Shown here: in pieces, positions 1-1,132 of the stretch
Layout of the letters: each line of letters starts with the position of its first letter
How positions within the stretch are numbered: position 1 is the first letter of the stretch
Assembly: GCA_000004985.1 (NCBI GenBank)
Contig: GG739537.1
Direction: 5' to 3' (one strand)
Source: Naegleria gruberi
Lineage: Eukaryota
DNA: 1,132 bases
Made by a program: the position numbers and the translations under genes
The notes under the pieces: generated by a model
Databases searched by the model: none
What the model saw: the letters and a program-made list of their open reading frames with translations, nothing else
What the model was told of the DNA's origin: nothing

Positions 1-219
1 TTCACAGACTATCATTATACACGGCCGAAACCGCATATGATTGATCTTACATTTGCATGGCTTAGGCTTTGAGACAAGCATATAGTACTGGCAGGATCAA
101 CCAGGTATCACTGGAGCAAAACGAGTTTTACCTTGTTTGCGCTCCGGTTGGATTTCAAGCGTTCGTTGGTTTGCACCACCTACTGGCTATCCATCCGTTT
201 GCCATTATGAACTCGATTT

Positions 220-249
220 GAGCCTAAACGAATGAATCGTTTGGGTCTC
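220..249 (+). other. 30-nt two-helix hairpin (GAGCCT / GGG-t-CTC outer stem, AAACGA / TCGTTT inner stem, loop ATGAA)
   Basis: Base-pairing is read directly: 220-225 pairs with 243-249 with t246 bulged, 226-231 pairs with 237-242, and the loop is 232-236. Confidence 0.5.
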
Positions 250-272
250 TGAGGTATGGGGTTCCTCTTGCG

Positions 273-342
273 AGGGTTTCCCGCTTAATGCGGGTAATCA
301 ATATTGAAAAACAGCTGGCTCGTCCCGGGTCAAGGGTTTCCC
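273..342 (+). repeat. Direct 10-bp repeat AGGGTTTCCC (273-282 and 333-342) flanking a hairpin CCCGC-ttaat-GCGGG (280-294)
   Basis: Both are exact matches read from the sequence. A CCCGGG palindrome lies at 324-329. Confidence 0.7.
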
Positions 343-372
343 CTCGGTCCAGGCTTCGCTGGCTGTGGTGGT

Positions 373-467
373 AGGGCAGCCCAAAGGGCTGCGGTGGTAG
401 GCTGGTAGGATCTGGGCAGCCCAAAAGGCTGCGGTTTGGCTGTGGGCAGCCCAAAAGGCTGCGGTTG
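373..467. repeat. Tandem array of three hairpin-containing direct repeats (unit ~25 bp, consensus tGGGCAGCCCAAARGGCTGCGGTt)
   Basis: Copy 1 is at 373-396 (hairpin GCAGCCC/GGGCTGC at 376-392, loop AAA). Copy 2 is at 413-436 (hairpin GCAGCC/GGCTGC at 416-432, loop CAAAA). Copy 3 is at 443-466 (hairpin at 446-462). Copies 2 and 3 are identical over 24 bp with a 30-bp period. Copy 1 differs by one A/G substitution and sits 40 bp upstream. Confidence 0.9.
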
Positions 468-593
468 AGGTATCTGAATCGGCCCCAGGGGCAGCGGTTG
501 GGCCGGACGGTTGGGGGGCCCTCCTAGGCTCCCGGGTCACACACGCGGGAGGCTCCCTGGACAGCCCTGGGGTCAGGACTGGCAGCGGGTTGG
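389..593 (+). repeat. Dispersed recurrence of the repeat tail motif GCWGCGG(G)TTGG (5 occurrences)
   Basis: Occurrences are gctgcggtggtagg at 389-402, gctgcggtttgg at 428-439, gctgcggttgagg at 458-470, gcagcggttggg at 491-502 and gcagcgggttgg at 583-593. The last two lack the upstream hairpin half and look like degenerate partial copies. Confidence 0.6.
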
Positions 594-598
594 ACCGT

Positions 599-620
599 TG
601 GCCGTGGGAATGGCCGTGGG
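599..620 (+). repeat. Tandem duplication of a 12-mer (TGGCCGTGGGaa / TGGCCGTGGGtt)
   Basis: tggccgtggg occurs at 599-608 and at 611-620, separated by 'aa'. Confidence 0.85.
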
Positions 621-683
621 TTCTGCCGGCTGGCTGTAGGGTGCCTCGACCGCACGCGTGGCCTGGGTGGGCCAGAGGGCGCG

Positions 684-750
684 TGGCTGGTGGTTGGCTG
701 GCTGGTGGGCTGGTTGGCTGGTGGCGGGTCAGGTTTGGTTGGTTGGTTAG
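684..750 (+). repeat. Imperfect G/T-rich tandem repeat (GCTGGTGG / TGGTTGGCTGG units) ending in (TTGG)3
   Basis: tggttggctgg occurs at 691-701 and 711-721. gctggtgg occurs at 686-693, 701-708 and 717-724. ttggttggttgg occupies 735-746. The block has about 7 C against about 36 G in ~67 nt. Confidence 0.8.
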
Positions 751-774
751 CAGCGCCCCGCAGTTACGCGCTGC
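750..774. other. Hairpin GCAGCGC / GCGCTGC (7-bp stem, 11-nt loop cccgcagttac)
   Basis: The reverse complement of gcagcgc (750-756) is gcgctgc (768-774). Confidence 0.55.
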
Positions 775-781
775 CTTGGCT

Positions 782-800
782 CCCAGCCGCAAGGGCTGGG
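782..800. repeat. Diverged fourth copy of the hairpin motif (CCCAGCC-GCAAG-GGCTGGG; 7-bp stem, 5-nt loop)
   Basis: CAGCCgcaagGGCTG is read directly and resembles the CAGCCcaaaaGGCTG core of the tandem copies. Confidence 0.6.
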
Positions 801-858
801 GGTGCCCACCGACCTTCATCAGGCGGGGAGGGTTACCGACCCCCGGTGTGAACAGCAG

Positions 859-888
859 GCCCCAACGGGTGGTTGACCCATTGGGGGC
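859..888. other. Extended GC-rich stem-loop (GCCCCAA-c-GGGT [GGTTG] ACCC-a-TTGGGGGC)
   Basis: The outer stem pairs 859-865 with 881-888, with one bulged G. The inner stem pairs 867-870 with 876-879. The loop is GGTTG (871-875). About 11 bp are paired in total. Confidence 0.6.
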
Positions 889-903
889 TCCGAAGGGCGT
901 TGA

Positions 904-920
904 TACCCTCGATGAGGGTA
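904..920. other. Hairpin TACCCTC-gat-GAGGGTA (7-bp perfect stem, 3-nt loop)
   Basis: The inverted repeat is perfect: the reverse complement of 904-910 equals 914-920. Confidence 0.6.
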
Positions 921-973
921 ATCCCTTAGGATCCTGCTGTCCGCAAGGTTAGGAACTGAAGTTCAGACATTTC

Positions 974-980
974 GGGGGGG
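974..980 (+). repeat. G7 homopolymer at the island/AT-rich boundary
   Basis: ggggggg at 974-980 is immediately followed by AT-rich sequence. Confidence 0.9.
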
Positions 981-984
981 TCGA

Positions 985-1132
985 TGAACTCGAAAGTAGA
1001 TATGGAAATAACTATAAATAAATAATCTTATAGTGTTTACAATAGAGGTGTCAAAAACGAAAAATCTATTAATATATAAATCCACAAGATATAGTTTACT
1101 GATAAATATGACCATATTTTTGACTGAAATTT
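985..1132. other. AT-rich spacer (roughly 80% A+T) with TATAAAT-like motifs. Apart from the 25 nt at 1108-1132, which are open to the window edge, it holds no ORF above the track's length cut-off and no longer in-frame ATG ORF. It may be intergenic or promoter-bearing
   Basis: ctataaataaataa lies at 1012-1025 and atatataaat at 1074-1083. Stops are dense in the frames checked. atgaccatatttttgactgaaattt at 1108-1132 is open to the window edge (8 codons). Confidence 0.4.

Follow-up and report, generated by a model that had tools for sequence, protein, structure and literature searches.

Identity and layout of the locus

The window analysed here, a stretch of 1,132 nt, runs from high to low coordinates through an AT-rich spacer and a GC-rich block into the beginning of an 18S rRNA gene (Table 1). 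A minus-strand alignment of the Rfam model SSU_rRNA_eukarya, positions 1–93, with window positions 107 to 1 (70.9 bits, E 1.4e-18) shows that the rRNA-sense strand is the minus strand and that the window presents rDNA on its antisense strand. The 18S gene continues beyond the window edge in contigs L003 and L005. In a search of the whole window against Rfam 15 at E values up to 1, the SSU rRNA at positions 1–107 was the only match, with no family over positions 373–470, and a tRNA scan of the whole window returned none.

The window also contains an open reading frame (ORF) of 173 codons, whose product differs by one residue from BAF74738.1 of the NEG-M plasmid and by two residues from AUH25139.1 of the EGB plasmid; an exact look-up of the product gave no record, the nearest one being a single residue different. 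Since an 18S gene starts on the minus strand and the ORF product is near-identical to a Naegleria gruberi plasmid protein, we assign the window to the stretch directly upstream of 18S on the circular extrachromosomal rDNA element (CERE) of N. gruberi, the nucleolar plasmid described in PMC5805870 and PMC11008152. The CERE plasmids AB298288 (NEG-M) and MG699123 (EGB) contain the same locus.

Metagenome sequences are consistent with this assignment. When 241 million metagenome records were searched for an exact 22-mer from the repeats described below, two contigs were obtained, both representing the same locus at 97–99% DNA identity to the window. The longer of the two, L001, encodes 28S, 5.8S and 18S rRNA, and its 18S gene has an intron with a GIR1 lariat-capping ribozyme, a type not known outside Naegleria, Allovahlkampfia and Didymium. 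Contig L003, in which the region corresponding to the presumed 5′ external transcribed spacer (5′ ETS) is 98% identical to that of the window, consists of head-to-tail repetition with a 13,799-bp period, the pattern expected from assembly of a circular plasmid, and holds a single 18S–5.8S–28S set per period. The setting is eukaryotic nuclear-type rDNA on an extrachromosomal plasmid, and is neither organellar nor bacterial.

Table 1. Features of the 1,132-nt window upstream of and including the 18S 5′ end
Feature	Position	Strand	Basis or remark
18S (SSU) rRNA gene, 5′ end, truncated at window edge	1..107	-	Rfam SSU_rRNA_eukarya
Conserved ETS core, TTTTTCAATA to 18S 5′ end, ~200 nt	108..311	-	Alignable in 6 Naegleria lineages
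Presumed 5′ ETS, GC-rich block	108..990	-	Composition, L010 homology, RNA fold
173-codon ORF, GenBank hypothetical protein (BAF74738.1, AUH25139.1)	298..819	-	Judged spurious
Hairpin copy 1, 18S-proximal, GCAGCCC-UUU-GGGCUGC, dG −12.2	376..392	-	Repeat search, fold, lineage comparison
Hairpin copy 2, GCAGCCU-UUU-GGGCUGC, dG −10.5, N. gruberi-specific	416..432	-	Repeat search, fold; no L010 counterpart
Hairpin copy 3, N. gruberi-specific	446..462	-	Repeat search, fold, L010 alignment
Degenerate fourth tandem unit	480..497	-	78% identity, fold z +0.31, no stable hairpin
(CCAGCCAA)n-type microsatellite	684..735	-	Tandem Repeats Finder
Separate ETS helix, CCCAGCC-CUUGC-GGCUGGG	782..800	-	dG −17.3, z −2.2
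Boundary motif GTTCATCGACCCCCCC at AT-to-GC switch	974..989	-	Once per plasmid, kept in L010
AT-rich non-ribosomal plasmid spacer	991..1132	.	21–35% GC

The GC-rich block as a putative 5′ ETS

The GC-rich block is about 880 nt long, has a GC content of approximately 65–73% and is found once per plasmid, adjoining 18S. No other part of the plasmid is as rich in GC, the remaining non-ribosomal sequence having about 30% GC. Folded as sense-strand RNA, the block was more stable than its shuffles (z −6.4). The antisense strand also outperformed shuffled sequences (z −4.2), so that the fold z-scores cannot tell the two strands apart, and they were not used to assign the strand. In the ETS core, a six-lineage alignment revealed compensatory changes in 10 of the 42 consensus base pairs, and this covariation indicates a spacer that is transcribed and structured as RNA. 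For the distal ETS, the comparison comprised two lineages only, N. gruberi and L010, between which 15 of 172 pairs were compensated and many were broken, with a covariation term of +4.9.

As can be seen in Table 1, the composition changes at the end of the block that is distal to 18S. The motif at this switch, GTTCATCGACCCCCC (window 974–989, minus strand), has a single occurrence per plasmid, and its version in lineage L006 reads TCGTCGACCCCCCC. Homology between N. gruberi and L010 spans the entire block and begins exactly at this motif (position ∼990), with no similarity upstream of it. Divergence between strains changes at the same place, since the window and L002, both of N. gruberi type, showed 7/118 differences upstream of the boundary and 4/886 downstream (Fisher p 5.8e-5). 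From the indirect evidence of the onset of homology, the conserved once-per-plasmid motif and the step in strain divergence, we infer that the GC-rich block may constitute a 5′ ETS of about 880 nt, with transcription probably beginning near the AT/GC boundary, and we regard the motif at 974–989 as a candidate start or promoter region of RNA polymerase I. The microsatellite is the sole length-variable spot among the N. gruberi-type variants, with insertions of 15 nt in L003 and 27 nt in L001.

Three hairpin units in tandem

Three units at positions 374–395, 414–435 and 444–465 match the 22-mer GGGCAGCCCAAAAGGCTGCGGT with 1, 0 and 0 mismatches, respectively, and none of 200 dinucleotide-preserving shuffles (0/200) gave a match. 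Their start-to-start spacing is 40 and 30 nt, in agreement with the three near-identical units at 30–40-nt intervals that had been reported in a first-pass annotation of this DNA. A repeat finder placed the cores of the units at 377–394, 417–434 and 447–464, and returned weaker matches at 480–497 (78%) and 784–801 (83%).

On the rRNA-sense strand, the units are located 269–355 nt ahead of the 18S 5′ end, and each of them can form a 7-bp stem with a 3-nt loop, GCAGCC(C/U)-UUU-GGGCUGC. Predicted free energies were −11.6 to −13.3 kcal/mol for 31-nt sense segments (z −2.0 to −4.4) and −10.5 to −12.2 for the 17-mer hairpins. The GC stem noted in the first-pass annotation does therefore fold, but the loop that it had called A-rich is so on the plus strand only and is U-rich on the rRNA-sense strand. 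Copies 2 and 3 are identical over 24 nt, unpaired flanks included, and all three units are invariant across the N. gruberi-type sequences. The global minimum-energy fold retains the proximal hairpin; in it, copy 2 pairs with copy 3 and neither of the two forms a local hairpin.

Beyond these three, a degenerate fourth tandem unit at 480–497 lies 33 nt past the third and inside a segment that is missing from L010. A tail-only copy previously marked at 491–502 overlaps this unit, but it adjoins the array and is not dispersed. The hairpin at 782–800, previously taken for a diverged fourth member of the family, is real (dG −17.3, z −2.2), but it has no flanks in common with the units, to which it is 83% identical over 18 nt, and the homologous site in L010 forms a hairpin with a different sequence. 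We read it as a separate spacer helix outside the repeat family, its likeness stemming from a CAGCC-rich composition. Another proposed partial copy, at 583–593, sits in a block that is conserved with L010 and has no feature that would identify it as a copy of the unit.

Comparison with other Naegleria lineages

Using the His-Cys box homing endonuclease encoded in the L001 intron, rDNA contigs of five other Naegleria lineages were recovered, and the sequence upstream of 18S was extracted from each and compared. A GC-rich block of variable length precedes the ETS core in most lineages. A hypervariable zone extends from 20 to 250 nt upstream of the core, and in it every lineage has a tandem subrepeat of its own: the hairpin units in N. 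gruberi, two copies of CAGCAGCCCCCGCGGTTCAGCCGC in L008, a long (CCAGCAGCCAGTACCAGTCCG)n-like array in L006, (CTCGCGCTGTCCCTTCC)n in L011 and (ACAGACAGAAGGTA)n in L013.

Comparison of the orthologous loci, which the first-pass annotation had named as a check on its reading, showed that the copy number is lineage-specific. L010, the closest other lineage here, has one hairpin (GCAGCCC-GAUA-GGGCUGC), located at the position of N. gruberi copy 1, as against three in N. gruberi. It lacks the segment that contains copy 2, copy 3 and the degenerate unit, and its alignment accordingly has gaps of 62 and 21 nt. At the offset of copy 1, L006 also has a hairpin, UACGGCC-UUCG-GGCCGUA, with a different stem. 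In N. gruberi, L010 and L006 alike, the hairpin has its 3′ end at −65/−66 relative to TTTTCAATA, which served as the anchor. A weaker hairpin (dG −6.0) occurs at the same offset in L008, and no clear counterpart of the proximal hairpin was seen in L011 and L013. By comparison, perfect hairpins with dG ≤ −6 end at 0–4% of positions in the 260-nt zone. In the aligned hairpins, which were picked by eye, 47 of 47 base-pair cells were paired and three pairs carried compensatory changes; full pairing is thus partly built in, and only the common position counts as independent evidence.

The loops of these hairpins read UUU, GAUA, UUCG and UUCAG across lineages. Selection on the loop, which the first-pass annotation had deduced from its conservation among the copies, is not borne out, since the loops differ between lineages and the identity of the copies extends into their unpaired flanks. 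We attribute the identical N. gruberi loops to recent duplication and not to selection.

Origin and possible role of the hairpin array

The explanation that we favor, and hold to be probable, is a tandem duplication, specific to N. gruberi, of an ancestral helix in the presumed 5′ ETS on the CERE. Copy 1 (376–392) is most likely the ancestral helix, and copies 2 and 3 together with the decayed fourth unit would have arisen by local tandem duplication of a 30–40-nt unit in the N. gruberi lineage. Slippage or unequal exchange would be the likely mechanism, with the product homogenized across the thousands of plasmid copies. Since each lineage amplifies a different local sequence, the arrays suggest local slippage and no common element. 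In the precursor RNA, each unit would fold co-transcriptionally, giving a GC stem of 7 bp capped by a UUU loop, and folding during transcription may favor the local hairpins over the pairing of copy 2 with copy 3. The role of the units, if any, would be that of a structural spacer module discarded in 18S maturation. An array of stem-loops for RNA processing or protein binding, which the first-pass annotation had offered as its second choice, fits a presumed 5′ ETS, and the proximal hairpin has a counterpart at the same offset in L010 and L006.

Alternatively, the hairpins could be DNA elements (enhancer-, spacer-promoter- or terminator-like) that control RNA polymerase I from upstream of the promoter. 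Part or all of the GC-rich block may precede the transcription start; under this explanation, the block would be untranscribed, with the start near the invariant TTTTTCAATATTGATTA about 200 nt before 18S. Consistent with such an arrangement, TTTTTCAATA and the 200 nt that follow it are the only part conserved in all six lineages, each of which has a hypervariable, repeat-rich zone immediately before that part. Repeated enhancer arrays upstream of the rDNA promoters in Xenopus and plants have an appearance similar to this zone. Our search of the CERE literature found neither a published transcription start site nor a description of this spacer region. However, N. gruberi and L010 can be aligned over the whole GC block from the boundary about 880 nt upstream, with several blocks near-identical, and strain divergence is low throughout the block and rises only upstream of the boundary. 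An ETS of 200 nt would also be unusually short. In addition, the proximal hairpin appears to keep its position while the sequence of its stem changes, which would fit selection on RNA better than a DNA-binding site. Taken together, we regard control elements as unlikely, although they rank first among the alternatives.

Retaining the preferred reading of the hairpins as ETS helices, one may go further and suppose that the hairpin about 66 nt upstream of the core is a genus-wide element for recognition or folding of pre-rRNA, that the surrounding zone is an amplification hotspot and that copy number tunes early processing. We think this extension quite unlikely to hold. If it did, the element could, for example, dock a component of the processome or mark an early cleavage; at the hotspot, each lineage would have independently amplified a hairpin-bearing unit of its own, to 3–4 copies in N. 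gruberi and two in L008; and the tuning would act on the plasmid that supplies all cellular rRNA.

A third possibility is that the palindromes serve replication or maintenance of the plasmid as DNA cruciforms or protein-binding sites, for instance at a replication-fork barrier or the origin. In supercoiled DNA, perfect GC palindromes are able to form cruciforms by extrusion, and the single origin of the N. gruberi plasmid has been mapped to a 2.1-kb non-ribosomal fragment, according to the passage of PMC13315211 that cites Mullican 2019. Against this, origins are typically AT-rich, whereas the block is the GC-richest part of the plasmid, and the arms of the palindromes are just 7 bp long. The two extra copies are absent from the closest lineage, L010, and hence are not essential for maintenance. 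We consider a function in replication or maintenance very unlikely.

The first-pass annotation had favored a proliferating palindromic element such as mitochondrial GC clusters, REP/BIME or organellar short dispersed repeats. In this explanation, a palindrome that is mobile or proliferates (GC cluster, REP-like or MITE-like) would have inserted repeatedly. Compact GC palindromes with conserved flanks would suit such an element, as would the difference in copy number (3–4 in N. gruberi versus one in L010) and the fact that L008 independently duplicated its own hairpin-bearing unit. However, the copies are adjacent, in the same orientation and spaced with a 30–40-nt period. A search for GCAGCCCAAAAGGCTGC with up to three mismatches on both strands of plasmid sequences of 11–19 kb found the three adjacent copies only, and the exact 22-mer had no match in the viral and prokaryote-genome collections, with this locus as its only source in the metagenomes; a scan of the viral collection with a 31-mer from the 18S 5′ end likewise gave 0 matches. 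The motif is thus not dispersed on the ∼14-kb plasmid but is a local triplication, and within the plasmid sequences and the viral, prokaryote and metagenome collections it occurs only here, in contrast to the dispersed family that had been proposed. Considering in addition that the setting is eukaryotic plasmid rDNA and that each lineage amplifies a different local sequence, a proliferating element is highly improbable.

The annotated ORF across the repeats

It is just as improbable that the repeats are part of a real gene for the annotated 173-aa protein, in which they would encode a repeated TAAFWAA motif. Two GenBank plasmid records include the ORF in their annotation, and it is open in 5/5 N. 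gruberi-type variants despite microsatellite indels of 15 and 27 nt, but these variants were found through a protein search and are open by construction. The open stretch of 216 codons falls in the upper 4–7% of composition-matched shuffles, the mean of which is itself 154 codons. In a search of 5.8 billion proteins, homologues were confined to a single cluster (90% identity), no Pfam match was obtained at E < 0.1, and GC content is flat over codon positions 1, 2 and 3 (0.672, 0.667 and 0.678, respectively). Relative to L010, the frame is broken by indels of 1, 13, 1, 1, 62 and 1 nt, and tblastn against L010 returned only fragments in different frames; no comparable ORF call exists in the other lineages. 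Furthermore, the ORF is situated on the rRNA-sense strand just before 18S, within the would-be polymerase I transcript. We conclude that the 173-codon ORF is probably spurious; a conserved coding sequence over the repeats, which the first-pass annotation had set against its own reading, is not what this ORF represents, since it is not conserved.

Relation to known rDNA spacers and significance

The paper on the EGB plasmid reported an ORF upstream of 18S without similarity to known proteins, and seven repeat families of 34–371 bp in the non-ribosomal sequence (PMC5805870). In the CERE papers, everything outside the mature rRNAs and internal spacers is treated as ‘non-ribosomal sequence’, and no ETS is delimited. 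The 24-nt hairpin units, which are below the repeat-size range of those papers, are not described in them.

A comparable arrangement is found on the rDNA chromosome of Didymium iridis, where the ETS contains four types of direct repeats (motifs E–H) in 2–5 copies; this rDNA is multicopy and non-Mendelian, and the function of its ETS repeats is unknown (PMC13182076). D. iridis resembles N. gruberi in having short, similar but non-identical direct repeats in the spacer between the transcription start, putative in N. gruberi, and SSU. In Didymium, read mapping supported the start and repeat-derived RNAs were observed, whereas the N. gruberi start is deduced from sequence. The N. gruberi unit also differs in being a perfect GC palindrome, and it has no sequence relationship to the Didymium repeats.

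In yeast and vertebrates, helices of the 5′ ETS scaffold the SSU processome (UTP-A, UTP-B and U3 snoRNP). The N. gruberi spacer is similar to these in that stable stem-loops lie upstream of 18S, the core covaries and one hairpin appears stable in position while its sequence drifts. In contrast to the yeast and vertebrate helices, those of N. gruberi yielded no binding partner, U3-complementary site or cleavage site in this analysis, and a sister lineage does without the extra copies. The units share with bacterial REP/BIME sequences, fungal mitochondrial GC clusters and organellar short dispersed repeats the character of short GC palindromes with a small loop in an AT-rich replicon. They differ from all of these in being tandem, within one 125-nt stretch, and in being neither organellar nor bacterial.

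The hairpin triplication lies on a plasmid already known and is of a type ordinary for rDNA spacers; it leaves the general understanding of rDNA spacers unchanged, and its practical value is modest. For the Naegleria rDNA plasmid, the analysis provides a first working 5′ ETS boundary together with a candidate polymerase I start region, and it indicates that the ORF annotated upstream of 18S by two GenBank records probably does not represent a gene. The hypervariable spacer zone, comprising the hairpin array and the microsatellite, could serve as a strain or lineage marker, and in the design of CERE-based vectors the proposed boundary would distinguish the probable transcribed spacer from candidate promoter sequence upstream.

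Conserved structure in the presumed ETS and the 18S gene

Six Naegleria lineages share a core of the presumed 5′ ETS adjoining the 18S gene, and 10 of its 42 predicted pairs carry compensatory changes among them. As examples, a single helix occurs in three versions (ACCCGC/GCGGGA, ACCTGC/GCAGGA and ATTGCG/CGCAGT). Putative processing and U3-docking sites are likely to be located within this core. In the 18S gene, too, the first variable hairpin shows paired changes between lineages, its versions being CGGTTTCGGCCG, TAACCTTACGGTTA, TGGCGCAAGCCA and TGGTTCACGCCA; these changes represent ordinary covariation of an rRNA variable region.

Coordinates of features in the window and in plasmid contigs (L001 and L003, N. 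gruberi type; L006, L008, L011 and L013, other Naegleria lineages)
Feature	Location	Strand	Remark
ETS core, ~200 nt	window 108-311	-	conserved in six Naegleria lineages
First variable hairpin of 18S gene	window 18-40 (18S positions ~68-90)	-	
Boundary motif GTTCATCGACCCCCCC	window 974-989	-	exactly where AT switches to GC
(CCAGCCAA)n-like microsatellite	window 684-735		
L008 tandem subrepeat	about 4017-4031 and 4077-4091		
L006, L011 and L013 tandem subrepeats	upstream of 18S gene		
GIR1 lariat-capping ribozyme	L001 14046-14242	-	18S intron
His-Cys box homing endonuclease	L001 13315-14079	-	18S intron
351-aa ORF, His-Me finger endonuclease domain (PF05551)	L003 3327-4382 and 17126-18181	+	downstream of 28S gene

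The boundary motif occurs once per plasmid and is kept in L010, the closest to N. gruberi of the other lineages. Its version in L006 is TCGTCGACCCCCCC, and L011 and L013 each carry CACTATAGGGGTACC at their own AT/GC switch. We regard these motifs as candidates for the region where RNA polymerase I starts or has its promoter. An exact 10-mer, ATGAACTCGA (sense strand TCGAGTTCAT), was found twice, once within the ETS core (window 207-216) and once at the boundary motif (984-993); its sharing by the two may be due to chance.

Plasmid organisation and an 18S intron

As read from 18,748 nt of the 23,282-nt contig, the sequence of L003 recurs every 13,799 bp, with genes at 1964/15763 and 3327/17126, as would be expected if a circular plasmid of about 13.8 kb had been assembled. 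The 351-aa ORF within this repeat corresponds to a ‘likely pseudogene’ of homing-endonuclease type that has been noted in strain EGB (PMC5805870).

The 18S gene of L001 is interrupted by a twin-ribozyme-type intron, which encodes a homing endonuclease of 254 aa and includes a GIR1 lariat-capping ribozyme (202.7 bits). The L003 18S gene runs for 2020 nt without interruption, despite an ETS that is 98% identical, indicating that presence of the intron varies among near-identical N. gruberi-type plasmids.

Lineage-specific repeats

In the zone of the presumed ETS upstream of the conserved core, where the N. gruberi hairpin units lie, each of the Naegleria lineages examined has a tandem subrepeat unrelated to those of the others. 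In L008, a hairpin-bearing unit has been duplicated independently. Among N. gruberi-type variants, the microsatellite is the sole length-variable spot, L001 having an insertion of 27 nt there and L003-L005 one of 15 nt, and it may be of use as a strain marker.
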